Notes under the pieces: model-generated | Seen by the model: only the letters and a program-made list of their open reading frames with translations | The model's database searches: none | Told to the model about the DNA's origin: nothing | From: Candidatus Kaiserbacteria bacterium RIFCSPHIGHO2_01_FULL_54_36 | GTDB lineage: Bacteria > Patescibacteriota > Minisyncoccia > Phycocordibacterales > UBA2100 | Length of the DNA stretch: 64,000 bases | Assembly: GCA_001781105.1 (NCBI GenBank) | Contig: MFKV01000028.1 | Coordinates: forward strand, 10,428-74,427 | Direction of reading: 5' to 3' | Program-made: the position numbers and the translations under genes | Shown: positions 3,672-42,953 of the stretch, piece after piece | How positions within the stretch are numbered: the stretch's first letter is position 1 | How the letters are laid out: every line of letters starts with the position of its first letter

Positions 3672-4042
3672 CCTGCATTAGGCAGCCGCTCGCGCGCAAG
3701 CGTTGAGAGGAAAGTCCGGACACGCACATCGATCAGATGTAGTACGGTAGCGGGTAACGCCCGCCGGGGTAATCCTAGGGATGCGAACAGAGACGTCCGA
3801 GCCGAGAGGCAAAGACACCCCTGTCTGCCGACAGGCAGGCGCAAGGGTGAGCCAGTGTGGAAACGCATTGGGTGCAACGGCAAAAATCCTACCTGCGTGC
3901 AAGGCCGTGCTTGGTCGTGCCGCTTTGAACATTCGGTGTTCAGTGCGGCATGACTGAGAGAGCCGCGCGAGGTGAGTGGCAACATTCATCCCAGATACAT
4001 GGCTGCCCCCGACAGAATCCGGCTTATTGTGCAGTGCAGGCG
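3672..4042 (+). ncRNA. rnpB: RNase P RNA (bacterial type A)
   Basis: GAGAGGAAAGTCCGGAC at 3705-3720 matches the universal P4 5' strand GAGGAAAGUCCGGGC. GGTAGCGGGTAACGCCCGCCGGGG matches the E. coli GGGUGCCAGGUAACGCCUGGG region. GACAGAATCCGGCTTAT at 4011-4027 matches the P4 3' strand ACAGAACCCGGCUUA. No ORF is compatible. Ends are approximate. Confidence 0.85.
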
Positions 4043-22403: not shown

Positions 22404-23360
22404 CTACAACTCTGAGATGATCTTCGCAATTTTCTCAGAATCGTGCCGAGCGATGTCGGCTTCAAAGAAAAAGTCGCCAGTAATAACGTGTTCTGCACAG
22501 TCCTTCAGCGCCGAGTCGCAGAGCATCGGATATTTCTTTTCTTTTTCGTAGGATGCAAGGAGTGCCTTGGGGATGGCTTGAGTATTGCAGATGACATGAT
22601 CAAACTTCTCAAGACCACTGTAGATTAGAAGCTCTTTCATCATGTCAGAGCACGAAAAGCCATGAGTTTCTCCCCACTTGGTCATCAAATTACACACCGC
22701 GATCTTCTTTCCTTTGCTTTCTCGCAGCGCTTCCCTCATGCCTTCGACGCACAGTGTCGGAATGAGCGAAGAGTAGAGATCGCCGGGGCCTATAACGATC
22801 AGATCGGCAGCGCGAATGGCGCTTTCAGTTTCCTCATAGATGCGCGCGGGCGGATCGAGGAAGACTTTTTTGATGCGAAGAGTCGCATCATGTTTAGGGA
22901 TATCGATATTCGTCTCTCCCACGATCTCCGTGCCATCTTCGAGGATCGCATGTACGTGCGATTTATCAAGCGACACCGGCAATACCGTGCCTTTGATGTT
23001 GAGGAGCTCCGAAGCTTTGCGTATACCTTCTATCTCGCCTCCGTAGATGGAAGAAAGTGCTGCAAGAAAGAGGTTGCCAAAACTGTGCCCGTGCAAAGTG
23101 CTTCCACCGTTGTTGAATCGGTAGTTGAAAAGTTCACGCAAGATCTCCGCTTGGCCCTCGTCTGCAAGCGCCAAGAGGCCGCGGCGCACATCTCCTGGCG
23201 GCAAAATACCGAATTCGTCACGCAGCACTCCTGCGGATCCGCCGGAATCGAATGAAGTAAAAACGGCCGTGATATCGAGGGGGAACTCTTTAAGCCCGCG
23301 CAAGAGGGTGTAGCCGCCACTTCCCCCTCCGATGCGTACGATCCTTTTCATGCGCGTCAT
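22404..23360 (-). CDS. YvcK/CofD family protein (gluconeogenesis factor / 2-phospho-L-lactate transferase-like, UPF0052)
   Basis: RIVRIGGGSGG N-terminal motif, LPPGDVRR, and overall YvcK similarity. Confidence 0.85.
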   Translation of the reverse strand: MTRMKRIVRIGGGSGGYTLLRGLKEFPLDITAVFTSFDSGGSAGVLRDEFGILPPGDVRRGLLALADEGQAEILRELFNYRFNNGGSTLHGHSFGNLFLAALSSIYGGEIEGIRKASELLNIKGTVLPVSLDKSHVHAILEDGTEIVGETNIDIPKHDATLRIKKVFLDPPARIYEETESAIRAADLIVIGPGDLYSSLIPTLCVEGMREALRESKGKKIAVCNLMTKWGETHGFSCSDMMKELLIYSGLEKFDHVICNTQAIPKALLASYEKEKKYPMLCDSALKDCAEHVITGDFFFEADIARHDSEKIAKIISEL

Positions 23361-23475
23361 TATCGAACAACTTTATACCCCGTGAGATATTCGCGCAATG
23401 TAATCGCTGTACAAGCTTTCATTTTTGAAATCCAAATGAAGTCGCATACCAATTTTGTGCTCTTATCTCATGGGG

Positions 23476-24045
23476 TTATACCCGCACACCAAATTTTGCT
23501 AGCTCCTTCTTCACCGCCGCAAGCGGCAAGCCAGCCACATTATTGGAATCCCCCACGATGCTTGCTATCAGCTTCTCGCCTTTCCCTTGGATAGCATATC
23601 CGCCAGCATTTTTCAGCGACTCTCCTGTTCTCACGTACGCTACGATCTCGGTCGGTGAGAGTTTCCGCATTTTCACGCGGGTGGCGACCGTCTTCGTGAA
23701 CGTTCGGCCCGTTTTTGAATCGACGATCGCAAATCCGGTAATGAGCGTATGAGTTTTACCACTTAATGCAGTCAACATCTGTATGGCGCGCGCTTTGCCA
23801 TGCGGCTTGCCCAGCAGTTTGCCGCGAAATACCGCAAACGTGTCTGCTCCGAGAACGACGGCGTCTTGATGCTGCTTCGCGACCATGAGTGCTTTCCCCA
23901 GCGCCAAGTGCCTTGCAAGCGCGGGAGGCGGGAGCGGCAAGCCCATGTGTTCCTCATACCCGCTTTCCTGTACCTCAAACTCGATGCCGCTCTTTGCAAG
24001 GATCTTCTTGCGCCAGGGCGAGGCAGAGGCGAGGATGAGTTTCAT
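23476..24045 (-). CDS. maf: Maf-like nucleoside triphosphate pyrophosphatase
   Basis: LILASASPWRKKIL...GADT...GKP. Classic Maf. Confidence 0.9.
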   Translation of the reverse strand: MKLILASASPWRKKILAKSGIEFEVQESGYEEHMGLPLPPPALARHLALGKALMVAKQHQDAVVLGADTFAVFRGKLLGKPHGKARAIQMLTALSGKTHTLITGFAIVDSKTGRTFTKTVATRVKMRKLSPTEIVAYVRTGESLKNAGGYAIQGKGEKLIASIVGDSNNVAGLPLAAVKKELAKFGVRV

Positions 24046-28303: not shown

Positions 28304-29366
28304 CCGGGTAGGCTTCTTTGATTTCTTTTGCGAGGTATGGGTTCCACATGGCGCCGGTAGCGGTCATGACGAGGTCGGCGCCGGCGTCGCGGTACTCTTT
28401 GAAATCTTCTGGCACCGTGACTCCTCCGCTCCCTACGATCGCGTATTGCATGCCGAATTCTTTGCGCAGTGCGCTGAGGCGGCGTGTCATGTCGAGCCCT
28501 GCCCACTTCACCGCATGTCCGCAGATGCCGCTCTTTACGCGGTGTGCACCGGGAAGCGCTTGCGAGCCATCAGGGTTCACGACAGGCGCGGGGATGGTGT
28601 TGATGGCAGCAAACCCGTCCACGACGGTGCCGACTTCTTTTACTAATTCGCGCAATTCATTTTCTCCAAAATACGCGATTTTGATAAGAAGCTTGGTGTC
28701 GCCGATCTGATCTTTTATCGCGCTCGTGATGAGCCTTATTTTCGGCACATCGAAGCAAAGGAGCGATGCGGCGCCTTCGTTGGGGCAAGAAAAATTCGTC
28801 TCGACTATTTTGACGCCTGTGTCCTTGATCATTCTAGCGCCCTGTACCCAATCATTGACGTAGTCATCGTGTGAAAATCCTTCCCACTTGGTGCCTTCGA
28901 AGCTGCAAACGACGAGCTGCCCTGGCTTTGCGTAGGCGACGCAATCGCGCAGATCTTTCATCCAGATCTCTGGATCATACGATGGATTGCCGAATGAATT
29001 GGTTATCGAAAGTGGCTCTTTGTATTCGTTGCGCACCACGATCGGCTCGTTTGCCTTTTCGAGCGTGAGATCGCCTTCGATATCGGCGCCCAAGACGTTG
29101 GGCCATTCGTTGCTCGCGCGCACACGGCTGCGCACTGTCTTGTGTATCGGCACATTGAAACTCTTATCGAGCGCCGCTTTGACGAACTTTGCATTGAGAA
29201 GCGGCCCTGCGGGAATGCCGATCGGATACTCGAGTTTCTCACCCAAGAATTCAAACCGCGGTTCGCCGAGGGGCACGACGACGCCATCCTCAAAGCCATT
29301 GAAAGGGCCTTCCTCCCAATTTTCCGAGTAGGTCTTATTGGGGTCGAAAAAAGGCGCCTGGAGCAT
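28296..29366 (-). CDS. Dihydroorotate dehydrogenase-like (DHOD family, PF01180-like) TIM-barrel protein
   Basis: IGIPAGPL, NFSCPN and SGGV motifs. Start set at MLQAPFFDP (29366), which is preceded by GGGGTATACT-N6-ATG. Confidence 0.7.
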   Translation of the reverse strand: MLQAPFFDPNKTYSENWEEGPFNGFEDGVVVPLGEPRFEFLGEKLEYPIGIPAGPLLNAKFVKAALDKSFNVPIHKTVRSRVRASNEWPNVLGADIEGDLTLEKANEPIVVRNEYKEPLSITNSFGNPSYDPEIWMKDLRDCVAYAKPGQLVVCSFEGTKWEGFSHDDYVNDWVQGARMIKDTGVKIVETNFSCPNEGAASLLCFDVPKIRLITSAIKDQIGDTKLLIKIAYFGENELRELVKEVGTVVDGFAAINTIPAPVVNPDGSQALPGAHRVKSGICGHAVKWAGLDMTRRLSALRKEFGMQYAIVGSGGVTVPEDFKEYRDAGADLVMTATGAMWNPYLAKEIKEAYPDA

Positions 29367-29373
29367 GCGCACA

Positions 29374-29415
29374 GTATACCCCATGAGATATATTCCTATC
29401 TCATGGGGTATACCC
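29374..29415. promoter_or_regulatory. Perfect 17-bp inverted repeat GTATACCCCATGAGATA-N6-TATCTCATGGGGTATAC
   Basis: Seen directly, between the GGDEF gene stop and the DHOD-like gene start. Its right arm provides the TATACT element 6 nt before the DHOD-like ATG. Confidence 0.6.
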
Positions 29416-29421
29416 CCGTGC

Positions 29422-30033
29422 CTACAAAAATTCGACTCTATTGCGACCTTTCGCCTTTGCCGAATGCATGAGAGCATCGTCCGCGCGTTTAATGGCGCTC
29501 TCGAAGGTGTCCTCCTCATTGACCAACGTCACGCCAAAACTCATGGTGAGTGAGGTATTTTCAATTGCAATGCCGAGTTCTTCGATGTCCTTCCGCAGAC
29601 TTTCTGCTATTCTCACAATTTGATCCTTGTCGCCGTCGATGATGCAGATGGCGAATTCTTCTCCTCCCCATCTCCCAACCAAGTCTTGAGGTCGTAGGTT
29701 CGTGCGTAGCGTCGAAGCAACCTTTTGCAGAGCTTTATCGCCCGCCGTATGGCCCTGAGTATCATTGAGCACCTTGAAGTGATCGATATCGCACATCATG
29801 ATCCCGATCTGCTTTTCTGGATCGCTAGCACGTCCACCTATTCGCATGCCTTCAATAATGTCGCTGGCTCGCTTCTCGAACTCGCGGCGGTTTGAGAGGC
29901 CAGTCAGCGCATCGCTGGTTGCCAGCTGTTCAAACTCTTTTGCCTTGCGGTACGTCGCCTCACGCGCATCAAGCTTTTGCTTTTTTGCCTCCTGCGCATC
30001 AAGCGATGCAGGACGATGGGATCCTTCTACCAT
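29422..30033 (-). CDS. GGDEF-domain diguanylate cyclase (stand-alone, coiled-coil N-terminus)
   Basis: RWGGEEF active-site motif, DHFK and the conserved GGDEF core. Confidence 0.85.
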   Translation of the reverse strand: MVEGSHRPASLDAQEAKKQKLDAREATYRKAKEFEQLATSDALTGLSNRREFEKRASDIIEGMRIGGRASDPEKQIGIMMCDIDHFKVLNDTQGHTAGDKALQKVASTLRTNLRPQDLVGRWGGEEFAICIIDGDKDQIVRIAESLRKDIEELGIAIENTSLTMSFGVTLVNEEDTFESAIKRADDALMHSAKAKGRNRVEFL

Positions 30034-30092
30034 CTTGCAAGTATACCCCTTACCGCCGTTAGCAAAGGCGGCAAGGGGTATCGCCTTACGCG

Positions 30093-34279: not shown

Positions 34280-34615
34280 CTATTGTTTCTTTTTACTCTT
34301 TGTAATGTGTCTCCCCAGGCGATCAAAGCTCCCCTGCCAAAAGGCTGCCTGTGATGTGAGCCAGGTGCTGTATTCCCTGAACGCCTTTTGGTTGAGTACA
34401 CAGATGCGCACGCGTCCGCGCTTGTGCGAGGAAATGATGCCCACATCCTCAAGAATGCGCGCGTGCTTCAGCGCTGCCGGAAGCGAGATTGCAAACGGTT
34501 CGGCCATTTTCGAAAGCGACATAGCGCCGCCATGGTGCAGCCGCTCGACCATGCGCCGCCTCACCGACTGGCACACCTCCTCCCATCCGCGCTCCACATC
34601 CCTATACTTAACCAT
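34280..34615 (-). CDS. ArsR/SmtB family transcriptional regulator
   Basis: HTH region LSKMAEPFAISLPAALKHARILEDVGII. Forms a classic ArsR-SRPBCC pair. Confidence 0.8.
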   Translation of the reverse strand: MVKYRDVERGWEEVCQSVRRRMVERLHHGGAMSLSKMAEPFAISLPAALKHARILEDVGIISSHKRGRVRICVLNQKAFREYSTWLTSQAAFWQGSFDRLGRHITKSKKKQ

Positions 34616-34630
34616 GGGTTAAGTATAGGG
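34600..34630. promoter_or_regulatory. 30-bp perfect palindrome CCCTATACTTAACCATGGGTTAAGTATAGGG overlapping the ArsR start codon
   Basis: Seen directly. Centred on CCATGG, which contains the ATG. Candidate autoregulatory operator. Confidence 0.6.
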
Positions 34631-34689
34631 ATACAGGGATGAACGTCAAGTGAAGATTCGGGAATAGAGTTATCCCGACCACGTATTTT

Positions 34690-36740: not shown

Positions 36741-37415
36741 CTATTGCCGCAAAACGAAGTTAATTATTTGCCATATCGGGCGAGCAATTTTTTCGATTGT
36801 AAGCGCAAAAGTCTCTGCAAAGTTAGGAACATTTGAGCTTGATTCTTCGACTTTTTCGCCTGTGGCTACAATAGCCTCTTGAATGAGAATACTGGTATTT
36901 GCCAGATTGTGAATTGTGGCATCGGGTATCGCATTTAATACGTCCGTTATGGGTACGATTCGTCCGACAGTAATATAAAAACTTCCCGTCCCGGTGAGGG
37001 TTGAAGTCTTTCTCAGTGGGTATTTATCGATATTTTCGATAAACCACGCTCGAGTTTGCCGCAAAGGCAAAATATACAACCTTTTTGTAGTTACAAAATA
37101 ATAATATAAATCATCTGCTTCACTATAGAGGAAACATCCGGGCGTTTGATGTTCTTCGTTACTAATCGTTTCAAAAAAGAAGTTTCCGGTCCGGTCATAT
37201 GTATCTCCTTTTACCTCGATAAGCCGTTCCATTCTTAATCCGTTGAGTTTGAATTTCCAAATCAGGTCTATATCTCTTTTTTGATATTCTATATTTTTCT
37301 CGACATTAAATATTTCTACCGTTTCAGCCATCGCTCTCATGTAACGGGTTACGGCAAAGACTGCATCATCAGCGATTGTAAACGAGTCAGCAATCTTATA
37401 CGTTCTAAGATCCAT
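36741..37415 (-). CDS. Hypothetical protein with PD-(D/E)XK nuclease-like motif, a candidate restriction endonuclease
   Basis: 224 aa in the low-GC island. RDIDLIWKF...ERLIEVKGD fits D-x(n)-E-x-K. Immediately downstream of the MTase and the 140-aa gene. Confidence 0.5.
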   Translation of the reverse strand: MDLRTYKIADSFTIADDAVFAVTRYMRAMAETVEIFNVEKNIEYQKRDIDLIWKFKLNGLRMERLIEVKGDTYDRTGNFFFETISNEEHQTPGCFLYSEADDLYYYFVTTKRLYILPLRQTRAWFIENIDKYPLRKTSTLTGTGSFYITVGRIVPITDVLNAIPDATIHNLANTSILIQEAIVATGEKVEESSSNVPNFAETFALTIEKIARPIWQIINFVLRQ

Positions 37416-37418
37416 GGA

Positions 37419-37841
37419 CTACAGTTCACCTTTATTTGCCAAGGCAACAAATCTTTCCAAAGTTACTATCTTTACTTTATCTGTATCTTTAAAAAATTTA
37501 TTCAGTCCACCAGCTATATAAAAATCTCTGAGCTTCCATCCATCACCGCCTAAAATGACATATGCCTTTGAATACACACCTTTGTTATCAATGAGTGCTT
37601 CGGCAAGACACATGACCTCAAAAGGAACTTTTTGTTCTGCCGTACCACTCGTTTGTTGCCATTTGGATGAGATGAGTATTTTTTCTCCGCCTTTTTCTGC
37701 AATAGCATCGACCATATGGCGGCCTTTTCCGCCAAGTCGTATGCCGATATGCATTTGCTTTGTGTAGTCATAGCCGCCTCTTTTTAAAGCAGGTAGCACC
37801 ATATTTTCCAAAACTCCTCCGGTATTAGTATTTCGCGACAT
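37419..37841 (-). CDS. Hypothetical 140-aa protein in the R-M-like island (possible second nuclease or accessory subunit)
   Basis: Overlaps the MTase stop by 17 nt. Contains VDAIAEKGGEKILISSKWQQTSGTAEQK (a D...E-Q-K arrangement). No family recognised. Confidence 0.5.
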   Translation of the reverse strand: MSRNTNTGGVLENMVLPALKRGGYDYTKQMHIGIRLGGKGRHMVDAIAEKGGEKILISSKWQQTSGTAEQKVPFEVMCLAEALIDNKGVYSKAYVILGGDGWKLRDFYIAGGLNKFFKDTDKVKIVTLERFVALANKGEL

Positions 37842-38673
37842 TAACCAGATCCTTATACCTTTTCACAGAAAGATCAAGGTAGTTCTTTTCAAGGTCGATT
37901 CCGATAAACTTCCTACCGTGCGCTGCAGCTGCTAACCCCGTTGTTGAGCTGCCGGCAAACGGGTCGAGAACAATATCGTCTTTTCTTGTACTAGCGAGGA
38001 CAATTCGTCTTAAAAGCTCCAGGGGTTTCTGGGTCGGATGTTTTCCAAATTTCTTCTCTCCAGGTTTAGGGGTTCCAATGGACCACACGGAGCGCATTTG
38101 CAGACCTGGTTTCTTTAGAAAATCTCTGCCCCAATCTCCCGCTTTCATCAGATCATAATCGAAATGATGCTTTGCTTTCTTTTCCTTTCTCGCCCAAATC
38201 AGAGTCTCATGACTCGCCGTAAAGAATCGGCAGCTCAAATTTGGCGACGCATTCGGCTTGAACCACGAGATGTCATTAAGGATGTGGTAGTTGAGCGATT
38301 GCAGGGCGTGTCCGCATTGGTAAATGGAATGATACGTTCCGCTTACCCAGAGCGTTCCGTGCGGTTTGAGGACTCGTCTGCAGGCTTCGAGCCATCGGTA
38401 GTGAAAGTCATAATCGTCCTCAAACCCCTTACTCTTGTCCCAATCTCCCTTATTCACACTTACCATCTTTCCTGCGTGTACCGAGAAGCCACCATTCGAA
38501 AGATTGTACGGCGGATCCGCAAAAATCATGTCGATAGAATTTTCAGGAAGCGAACTGAGCAAATCTATCGAGTCGGCATTGTAGAGAACAAAGTTGTCCT
38601 GTTTGAAATAGGGCTTGAACTCGACAGACGCGAGGATTTTCTGTCTTGGTTTCTGAAAGGTTACGAGCGCCAT
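37825..38673 (-). CDS. Beta-class amino DNA methyltransferase (N6-adenine or N4-cytosine; DPPY motif IV precedes motif I FAGSSTTG)
   Basis: IFADPPYN and LDPFAGSSTTGLAA. Start set at MALVTF (38673), which is preceded by TATAAT-N7-ATG. The track start at 38706 lies inside that promoter. Confidence 0.85.
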   Translation of the reverse strand: MALVTFQKPRQKILASVEFKPYFKQDNFVLYNADSIDLLSSLPENSIDMIFADPPYNLSNGGFSVHAGKMVSVNKGDWDKSKGFEDDYDFHYRWLEACRRVLKPHGTLWVSGTYHSIYQCGHALQSLNYHILNDISWFKPNASPNLSCRFFTASHETLIWARKEKKAKHHFDYDLMKAGDWGRDFLKKPGLQMRSVWSIGTPKPGEKKFGKHPTQKPLELLRRIVLASTRKDDIVLDPFAGSSTTGLAAAAHGRKFIGIDLEKNYLDLSVKRYKDLVNVAKY

Positions 38674-38813
38674 GTGGATTATTATACCCCACGCGCGGTT
38701 GCTCATTTTGGGGAATCGGGGCCGTATTGCGGGGGTGGAGTGCGGGTGCCATAGTTGGGGTCGAAACTTAACCCAGCTCTTTGAGGTGGAAAGAGCTCTA
38801 CTTGGAGGCTACA

Positions 38814-39595: not shown

Positions 39596-39774
39596 ATGAG
39601 GTGGAGCTGTTTTCGGAAGGTTTTGTGATGGGGAGTAGCGCGCTCCACATACCTATTCAAGTATTTTGCAAAACACTAGAATAGATCTCATCCCACAAAT
39701 CTTCATTTTGAACGAATTGACCTACGTACGATGCCGTGGCATTATATCGGCCGGCCCAAACCAGGAGGTACCCC

Positions 39775-40357: not shown

Positions 40358-40390
40358 TGCGACGAAAAGCCCCGGGCATGCCCGGGGCTT
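40358..40390. terminator. Bidirectional terminator AAAAGCCCCGGGCATGCCCGGGGCTTTT
   Basis: Perfect 10-bp GC stem flanked by A and T runs, between convergent genes. Confidence 0.8.
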
Positions 40391-40428
40391 TTATACATTT
40401 CAACCTTATTTTAGAGGATTGATTCGAG

Positions 40429-41024: not shown

Positions 41025-41297
41025 CTATTGCAGTCTTTTGCAAAACACTAGTATAGATTCTGCGCGCGGTGTCAGTTTGTGACGGACAGCGCTTCCCTGG
41101 TTCCGTTTAAAAACGAGGCCGGCGATTGCCAGTTTGCGTACGTGATCCGAAGCATTTTCATATCCTATTTTTAGACGCTGTGAAATATCTTCGACCGACA
41201 GTTCAGGTTCTCGTTTTAACAAATCGAGGATTTGCAGACGCCGATGATTCGCAAATCCTTTGACTATTCGTTCCAGCTGTCTGTATGTAGCTGCCAT
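41025..41297 (-). CDS. ArsR-family HTH transcriptional regulator (about 90 aa)
   Basis: FANHRRLQILDLL...SVEDISQRLKIGYENASDHVRKLAIAGLV. Start at MAATYRQ; the track start is a TTG inside a repeated motif. Confidence 0.7.
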   Translation of the reverse strand: MAATYRQLERIVKGFANHRRLQILDLLKREPELSVEDISQRLKIGYENASDHVRKLAIAGLVFKRNQGSAVRHKLTPRAESILVFCKRLQ

Positions 41298-41353
41298 AGA
41301 TCGATTGTACTCTATTGCAGTCTTTTGCAAAACACTAGCATAGGAATAAAGAT

Positions 41354-42770: not shown

Positions 42771-42884
42771 CTACCATTTGTAGCCCTTCTTTTCGAGCAT
42801 CACGCGCTTCGCCTCCAGCCGCTTTTTCGTCTTTCTTGAGCGTGTCTTTTTTCTCCTGATGTCCTGATCCGGTCTTTTTCCCAT
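42771..42884 (-). CDS. Possible 37-aa highly basic peptide
   Basis: Own translation: MGKRPDQDIRRKKTRSRKTKKRLEAKRVMLEKKGYKW. The ATG is preceded by GGGGTATACT-N6. Confidence 0.3.
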   Translation of the reverse strand: MGKRPDQDIRRKKTRSRKTKKRLEAKRVMLEKKGYKW

Positions 42885-42953
42885 CGGGGTAGTATACCCC
42901 ATGAGATGAAGCAAGCTATTCCCAGGGGTATACCCTATTACTTCGCTGCATCC

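Follow-up and report, generated by a model that had tools for sequence, protein, structure and literature searches.

The 64,000-nucleotide stretch of DNA analysed here (the window), part of a Candidatus Kaiserbacteria genome, carries a short inverted repeat at three intergenic sites, called S1, S2 and S4 in the following, which are probably REPIN- or MITE-like, gene-less satellites of elements bearing a small GIY-YIG nuclease gene, and which would sit on promoters. S1, S2 and S4 would thus be miniature members of a family whose full-length form encloses an Slx1-like GIY-YIG gene. The repeats of the window belong to a family that is associated with GIY-YIG genes, its arms covary between nuclease subfamilies, and the elements are absent at orthologous loci of relatives. 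Moreover, the arms occur in the geometry that places a -10 box before an ATG.

The motif is real and non-random, yet the sites that carry it are not equivalent. Allowing up to three mismatches, TATACCCCRTGAGATA has five matches in the window against 0.35 expected, a number reached in none of 100 shuffles. ATACCCC is present in 13 copies against 2.9 expected, and the pair TATACCCC-N(0-30)-GGGGTATA in two against 0 expected. The arm TATACCCC[G/A]TGAGATA is common to S1 (23374-23481), S2 (29374-29413) and S4 (42892-42933). A sequence-only reading of the window had described one recurring motif at four loci; recurrence does exceed chance and these three sites share the arm, but the fourth, S3 (30041-30081), has only the outer GTATACCCC/GGGGTAT in common with them. 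All four sites are intergenic and their flanking genes lie on the minus strand. The sequence of S2 and S3 is identical in six independent metagenome assemblies, so that the palindromes are not assembly artefacts. The features of the sites, together with the predicted promoters and starts of the adjacent genes, are as follows:

23374-23389, S1 arm A: TATACCCCGTGAGATA, C-type, read as TATCTCACGGGGTATAAAG on the minus strand; upstream of the CofD/YvcK-like gene
23390-23463, S1 spacer: 74 nt, within the long class (67-78 nt) of other Patescibacteria
23464-23481, S1 arm B: TATCTCATGGGGTTATAC, T-type, with a 1-nt insertion (GGGGTTATAC); overlaps the Maf stop codon (23476-23478)
29364-29378, minus strand, predicted promoter and start of the DHOD-like gene: TATACT (29373-29378), GTGCGC, ATG (29364-29366)
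29374-29390, S2 proximal arm, on the side of the DHOD-like gene: GTATACCCCATGAGATA on the plus strand, TATCTCATGGGGTATAC on the minus strand
29391-29396, S2 loop or spacer: 6 nt
29397-29413, S2 distal arm, far from the DHOD-like gene: TATCTCATGGGGTATAC on the plus strand
30031-30045, minus strand, predicted promoter and start of the GGDEF gene: TATACT (30040-30045), TGCAAG, ATG (30031-30033)
30041-30081, S3 variant hairpin: GTATACCCCTTACCGCC-N9-GGCGGCAAGGGGTAT, with family-like outer bases and a different inner stem
42882-42896, minus strand, predicted promoter and start of the 37-aa basic ORF: TATACT (42891-42896), ACCCCG, ATG (42882-42884)
42892-42908, S4 arm: GTATACCCCATGAGATG, one mismatch; its outer end on the minus strand supplies the predicted -10 box
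42925-42933, S4 degenerate partner arm: retains only GGGGTATAC

The perfect 17-bp arms and 6-nt spacer that the sequence-only reading gave for S2 are indeed present, and the folding energy of this stem is -31.8 kcal/mol (z = -7). The arms of S1, which it placed about 45 nt apart, are in fact separated by 74 nt, and S4, which it took as a copy or variant, deserves this name for one arm, the other being reduced to GGGGTATAC. The inner stem of S3 (TTACCGCC/GGCGGCAA) is unrelated to the stems of S1, S2 and S4. A TATACCCC/GGGGTATA base is kept around other inner stems in a few Patescibacteria hairpins too (loci L085 and L099), and S3 may be either a diverged copy of the family or an independent GC-clamped hairpin abutting a -10 box. 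Rfam 15 gave no match at the sites at the gathering score and none around S1 at E up to 10, and the motif strings had no match in the literature searched.

On the minus strand, S1 lies between Maf and the CofD/YvcK-like gene (PF01933) and S4 between an 84-aa ORF and the 37-aa basic ORF, while S3 and S2 flank the GGDEF gene in the order 47-aa ORF, S3, GGDEF, S2, DHOD-like gene. At S1 and S2, the distal arm is adjacent to the stop codon of the preceding gene; at S2 it lies 8 nt downstream, in the direction of minus-strand transcription, of the GGDEF stop codon (29422-29424). At the other end, S2, S3 and S4 terminate on the minus strand in GGGGTATACT, followed by 6 nt and then ATG. Their gene-proximal arm ends in GGGGTATAC+T, which forms the predicted -10 box; at S2, the hexamer is made of the outer TATAC of the proximal arm and the next base. 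This coincidence of the proximal arm with a leaderless -10 box had been overlooked in the earlier account. S1 is ambiguous: the TATA of its arm is 11 nt from the first ATG, a separate GATAAT stands 7 nt before the ATG at 23351, and judging from this arrangement the S1 arm may not be the promoter of the CofD/YvcK-like gene.

The same geometry is widespread in the window. A TAnnnT hexamer, in many cases as GTGnTAnnnT (extended -10), precedes the start of dozens of long ORFs by 6-7 nt, and a TAnnnT located 5-8 nt upstream was found for 16 of 64 first ATGs (25%) versus 9 of 325 internal ATGs (2.8%), with no enrichment of SD-like motifs at window starts (11% versus 10.5%). The source organism therefore appears, from its sequence, to rely on leaderless mRNAs. 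The same holds for 72 Patescibacteria loci, where position -15 is T and position -14 is G; no paper linking Patescibacteria and leaderless promoters was found in the literature searched. S2, S3 and S4 thus have what is expected of a sigma-70-type -10 element of a leaderless mRNA, in a geometry seen genome-wide. Considering the arms of the whole family, T occupies the sixth hexamer position in 86% of those preceding a start codon versus 29% of the others, and the spacing between arm and start codon peaks at 6 nt; about half of all arms face no gene start. By this geometry, the arm would be part of the promoter.

The start of the DHOD-like gene at 29366 is consistent with the length of its homologues (356-358 aa) and of a 100% identical, NCBI-annotated protein of Candidatus Kaiserbacteria bacterium RIFCSPHIGHO2_01_FULL_54_3x (356 aa), and is further backed by a TATACT-N6/7-ATG conserved in four relatives. 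Gene callers begin this gene within the palindrome or before it, so that in some assemblies it is called as 362 or 393 aa instead of 356 (loci L001, L004 and L005); the miscalled start is the ATG within CTCATGGGG, in frame with the true start (window 29366-29519).

Some other sequences of the window deserve mention. The start of the DNA methylase gene (37825-38673, minus strand) lies 7 nt downstream of GGGGTATAAT (region 38671-38690), with the geometry of GGGG plus hexamer seen in the arms, but without an arm; GC3 is low (0.33-0.37) in the genes next to it (36741-37841), suggestive of an acquired restriction-modification island. The -10 box and start codon of a 111-aa HTH_20 (ArsR-like) gene (34280-34615) are covered by a perfect inverted repeat of 16 nt, ATCCCTATACTTAACC/GGTTAAGTATAGGGAT (34598-34632), which is likely an autoregulatory site. 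A 32-nt imperfect palindrome with the consensus CTATTGCAGTCTTTTGCAAAACACTAGTATAG is present in three copies (39653-39684, 41025-41056 and 41312-41343), the last of them just upstream of a leaderless start, TACAAT-N6-ATG, at 41297; this is possibly the true operator-type motif of the window.

We then turn to the orthologous loci. In four related Kaiserbacteria, whose DHOD-like protein is 75-87% identical, the TATACT-N6/7-ATG is kept and the palindrome upstream of the DHOD-like gene is absent in all four, as are the palindromes upstream of the GGDEF and CofD genes. The density of elements is three in the 64-kb window, one in a relative (L125) and none in L126-L128. In other genomes, the 67 genes downstream of promoter-type arms share no function according to Pfam; genes found after arms include PheS, HisS, YidC, RF, RNase PH and UvrC.

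These observations bear on the shared regulator to which the sequence-only reading had attributed the palindromes as one of two options. In such a scheme, they would be operators for one transcription factor, overlapping the -10 box and co-regulating the yvcK-like, GGDEF, DHOD-like and small-ORF genes. It is true that the arms overlap the -10 box, from -24 to -8, that their sequence is very strongly conserved and that a single C-type arm is, by eye, a weak 16-bp pseudo-palindrome. Nevertheless, the element is missing at the orthologous loci of relatives that keep the promoters, the arms are 6 to 78 nt apart, and up to 290 nt, instead of showing the fixed spacing of half-sites, the 67 downstream genes are not a coherent set of targets, about half of the arms have no facing gene start and the core is common to at least five phyla, all of which makes this explanation very improbable. 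The Pfam results for the 67 downstream proteins were too incoherent for a regulon. A CsoR/RcnR-type operator (ATACCCC-N3-5-GGGGTAT; cf. PMC3902906) was also rejected, the C- and G-tracts being here at least 22 nt apart at a variable spacing. One arm may bear a resemblance to the ParB parS site or to Noc NBS half-sites. Another promoter-centred explanation is that TATCTCAYGGGGTATACT defines a special promoter class recognised by an alternative sigma factor, or an extended -10 of unusual length. The arm does provide a G at -14, as in the general GTGnTAnnnT promoters of these genomes, and GGGGTAT presumably resembles the -10 element of SigB/SigF-type promoters. However, it is carried by a minority of leaderless promoters only, half of the arms have neither a gene nor a T at -7, arms are also found on the 3' side of a gene, and TGAA or TAAA replaces TATA in the subfamilies outside Patescibacteria, so that the probability of this explanation is next to negligible.

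The distribution of the repeat is consistent with the satellite interpretation. Scanning one genome per species for the 16-mer ATCTCATGGGGTATAC, we found it in at least 118 genome stretches; among the matches listed, most of 80 rows bear Patescibacteria names, including Kaiserbacteria, Paceibacteria, Nomurabacteria, Saccharibacteria and Moranbacteria. A 12-nt core, CCCCGTGAGATA...TATCTCACGGGG, is paired across Patescibacteria in the layout TATACCCCGTGAGATA, spacer, TATCTCAYGGGGTATA; the core arms are CCCC[G/A]TGAGATA ... TATCTCA[C/T]GGGG, extended outward by TATA(C) in this group. Spacer lengths cluster at about 6-13, 33-39 and 67-78 nt; in sequence, the spacers show no relation to each other, even inside one genome. 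No conservation by position was found inside the spacers and no structure in those of 33-78 nt (mean z of +0.46 and +0.13 versus shuffles). Tandem arrays share a GGGGTATACCCC junction.

An unbiased metagenome scan for the pattern CCCCNTGAGATA-N8-38-TATCTCANGGGG yielded 116 distinct elements, 71 of them perfectly complementary, 43 mixed and 1 T/T. These counts roughly match independent arms, and a strand-specific RNA hairpin with a conserved G.U pair was therefore discarded, the G/T asymmetry of 85 out of about 89 pairs being an artefact of the scan pattern used before. The T-type arm is a CpG-to-TpG variant that accounts for about 19% of arms. In the unbiased scan, only the 12-nt core is universal, and subfamilies differ in the four bases outside it: TATA in Patescibacteria and, in other groups, TTCA or TTTA with TGAA or TAAA as the partner, besides further types. 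Contigs with non-TATA arms were assigned, through co-members of 90%-identity protein clusters with named proteins, to Thermodesulfobacteriota, Acidobacteriota (Pyrinomonadaceae), Planctomycetota and Verrucomicrobiota. A phage origin was rejected, the viral collection giving only seven solitary matches, consistent with chance, as was a CRISPR array, since solitary units end in half-repeats and the spacers of one array are almost identical copies of each other. Patescibacteria loci also contain gene-less pairs of a second inverted-repeat family, CCCGTTAGARAY/RTYTCTAACGGG (L007:2262-2371, L025:1165-1276, L053:7865-7982, L067:2323-2446, L084:5703-5764, L118:2045-2160 and L218:557-592), which in L088 flanks a GIY-YIG gene of another subfamily.

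Arm pairs separated by more than 150 nt form an extra spacing class of 253-290 nt, and these intervals encode Slx1-like GIY-YIG proteins of 80-94 aa, of the type MYYVYILRS..FYTGSTNDLKRR..EH....PW.LVYYEA....DAR.REKYLKTAWGKRYIK. Matches of the enclosed ORFs are PF01541, the GIY-YIG catalytic domain (E about 1e-16), and the UPF0213 protein BH0048 (PDB 1ZG2, E = 3e-7). With a local profile, 16 GIY-YIG ORFs were detected in about 1.9 Mb of loci, eight with both canonical arms and one with a single arm, the best-scoring ORFs being almost all in the arm-carrying group; the profile search found no GIY-YIG ORF in the 64-kb window. Three further close homologues, fetched by protein sequence, are all flanked by arms (one each from Kaiserbacteria, Lloydbacteria and another Patescibacterium). 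The small GIY-YIG family is large, at least 1,689 cluster representatives having matched a single query.

The arms are closely fitted to the nuclease gene. The inner end of the left arm, GAGATAAT, is located about 8 nt before the start codon, which is the -10 geometry of the leaderless type; at the other end, the right arm adjoins the stop codon or covers part of it. The C-terminal [Y/S]LTG of some nucleases is encoded by this right arm, and synonymous changes in this segment (CTC, TTA, CTA) are mirrored in the left arm, indicating that complementarity itself is maintained. Of eight more distant GIY-YIG genes lacking both canonical arms, five have different inverted repeats of 13-19 nt at their flanks, such as CCCGTTAAAGAC/GTCTTTAACGGG, the average in shuffled controls being 9 nt, and the alternative arm type CCCGTTAGAGAT also forms gene-less pairs in several other loci. 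Arm type tracks protein identity loosely, the nuclease of L273 being 61% identical to that of L036 and having other arms. An internal 14-nt inverted repeat, nested within the outer arms, was noted in some of the GIY-YIG ORFs (L036:6930-7160, L070 and L039): its one half, CCCCAAGCAGTTTT, encodes PKQF close to the N-terminus, and the other, AAAACTGCTTGGGG, KTAWG close to the C-terminus.

The gene-bearing copies have the same neighbours in 23 contigs each, and hence the GIY-YIG gene has not moved recently. One locus, L069, is a deletion intermediate in which the nuclease promoter and first 13 codons are retained inside an 89-nt spacer. No similarity was found between gene-less spacers and the ends of GIY-YIG genes, and none of 197 distinct spacers held a coding remnant. 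As gene-less spacers are related neither to each other nor to the nuclease gene, a simple copy-and-paste of the whole unit fits poorly.

In several Patescibacteria, a GIY-YIG element lies inside the RNase P RNA gene (L256:2976-3260, L265:2979-3666, and also L266-L272). Its right arm TATCTCACGGGG runs directly into GAGGAAAGTCCG, and it is this arm that the Rfam alignment identifies as the 3' strand of P3; on this alignment the arms of the rnpB-borne copies apparently make up the P3 helix, whose loop would contain the nuclease ORF. The rnpB gene of the window (3673-4038) is without a GIY-YIG insert. Earlier work describes the stand-alone Slx1-like GIY-YIG proteins of prokaryotes as repair nucleases that are inherited vertically, and does not mention flanking repeats (PMC1564403); one study lists GIY-YIG genes among the horizontal transfers out of Patescibacteria (PMC12455944). 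No paper linking GIY-YIG genes to flanking repeats was found in the literature searched.

Taken together, these data lead us to propose that the window copies relate to GIY-YIG genes roughly as REPINs do to RAYT genes, or MITEs to their parent element, and that they were gained in this lineage, in intergenic DNA. The arms, in the form of a hairpin, a cruciform or a symmetric duplex site, would be the target of a GIY-YIG nuclease, which would spread or maintain them. Insertion may favour TATA-containing -10 boxes; alternatively, arms may be retained where they serve as promoters. At the DHOD-like gene and the 37-aa ORF, the outer end of the arm and the next base (GGGGTATAC+T) coincide with the predicted -10 box, as does the variant hairpin of S3 for the GGDEF gene, with the other arm abutting the stop codon of the upstream gene. 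The arm could accordingly be a working promoter element and the hairpin an insulator or terminator.

Such a role of the hairpin could also be imagined without mobility or any part for the GIY-YIG nuclease, as a host-selected punctuation of transcription in which the hairpin ends or insulates the upstream transcript and the 3' arm is the next promoter. The distal arm abutting the stop codon at S1 and S2, the very high stability of stems such as that of S2, the variant hairpins that keep the TATACCCC/GGGGTATA base around other inner stems and the arms of L265, which apparently serve as helix P3 of the RNase P RNA, all agree with this idea. We consider it unlikely, however: the stems are followed by TATACTGTGCGC or similar, with no T run as required of an intrinsic terminator, the 33-78 nt spacers are unstructured (mean z at or above 0), the stem sequence, beyond mere pairing, is invariant across phyla, and the orientation of the element is independent of gene direction. 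A classical bidirectional intrinsic terminator, AAAAGCCCCGGGCATGCCCGGGGCTTTT, is present at 40365-40392 of the window; terminators with a U-tract are thus in use in this organism, and the palindromes of S1-S4 are not of that type. The deletion intermediate L069, with its 13 codons kept, raises the further question of whether the pairs are decaying pseudogene scars, left where resident GIY-YIG genes were deleted in place and never spread as short units. The positional stability of the gene-bearing copies and the [Y/S]LTG encoded by the right arm of some nucleases would fit as well. Against this, the 64 kb contain three elements, tandem arrays exist and a genome has many pairs for few nuclease genes, coding remnants are missing from all 197 distinct spacers, the arms are near-perfect while the spacers have fully diverged, and spacer lengths are clustered rather than spread; deletion scars are thus decidedly unlikely as a general explanation. 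Finally, dispersed intergenic inverted repeats forming tandem arrays, and copies whose spacers and flanks are related in some non-Patescibacteria lineages, recall a classical REP/REPIN with its RAYT (Y1 HUH) transposase, or else MITEs that descend from an ordinary insertion sequence. This is extremely improbable, given that GIY-YIG is the only gene found between the arms, that the arms are without a GTAG or CGTC head, that no transposase is encoded among the 67 downstream genes and that the core is identical across phyla, whereas REPs are species-specific.

Satellites of GIY-YIG elements remain for us the probable nature of S1, S2 and S4. A more general proposal, which we advance tentatively and with rather less conviction, is that minimal Slx1-like GIY-YIG nucleases are the trans partners of a RAYT-independent, REPIN-like system in Patescibacteria and at least four other phyla, with subfamily-cognate repeats originating from the 3' coding end of the gene, co-option of the repeats as -10 boxes in leaderless organisms and tolerance of the element inside RNase P RNA. 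If true, a large family of small GIY-YIG proteins would gain a concrete role and a testable DNA partner, and a second nuclease class would join the pattern of repeat plus domesticated nuclease so far represented by RAYTs and REPINs. It would also mean that, in candidate-phyla-radiation bacteria with their compact genomes and leaderless mRNAs, a selfish repeat can be positioned precisely on promoters. In practical terms, gene callers mis-start genes inside an arm, as for the DHOD-like gene, and the arm could be a ready-made promoter module for the few cultivable Saccharibacteria.

Several known systems resemble these elements in part. Like integron attC sites, they have two conserved inverted ends and a centre variable in length and sequence; unlike attC, they show no R'/R'' core sequences, cassette arrays or integrase context, and the genes that they flank are ordinary housekeeping genes. 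As with GIY-YIG homing endonuclease genes (I-TevI, Seg) and the insertions in CPR rRNA genes (PMC11270868), the nuclease gene is a compact insert, which in L256 and L265-L272 lies within a structured RNA gene (P3 of rnpB) with flanks that can pair. Homing enzymes, however, have a separate DNA-binding domain and about 250 aa, whereas the proteins found here are of the Slx1-like/UPF0213 type and consist of the catalytic domain only in 80-94 aa, and gene-less repeat pairs are a feature of the present elements only.

Transcripts of Correia elements fold into hairpins. Correia elements (CREE, Neisseria) and promoter-bearing MITEs are likewise small intergenic elements with terminal inverted repeats, whose ends form -10 boxes with the flanking bases and alter or supply promoters. 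Correia copies differ in sharing internal sequence and a TA target duplication, while here the internal sequence is not conserved and the promoters would drive leaderless mRNAs. As in MITEs, the terminal inverted repeats are common to a longer, gene-bearing element, but there is no shared internal sequence, L069 alone keeping a coding remnant. A target-site duplication is not distinguishable, because the outer TATA reads the same on both strands; other subfamilies have their outer 4 nt in inverted and not direct orientation (TTCA...TGAA), and the rnpB copies are without matching outer bases.

The closest likeness is to REP/REPIN-RAYT systems (Bertels & Rainey 2011, PMC3116915), with which the elements share intergenic inverted pairs at preferred spacings, tandem clusters, a single-copy, positionally stable nuclease-type gene flanked by its own repeats, and different repeats going with different gene subfamilies. 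The REP-like alternative of the sequence-only reading therefore holds as far as dispersed inverted repeats (three in the 64-kb window, several in other MAGs), tandem arrays and presence or absence at orthologous loci are concerned. It fails on the gene, since what the repeats enclose, in each case found, is a minimal GIY-YIG nuclease of the Slx1-like kind (PF01541) in place of a RAYT of the Y1 HUH type, and on the GTAG/CGTC head, the arms beginning with TATA, TTCA or TTTA and then CCCC; furthermore, the 12-nt core is identical in several phyla instead of being species-specific, and the spacers are unrelated. Because several hallmarks of both REP/REPINs and MITEs are lacking, we place the GIY-YIG repeat elements in neither family and regard them as a variant of their own kind.
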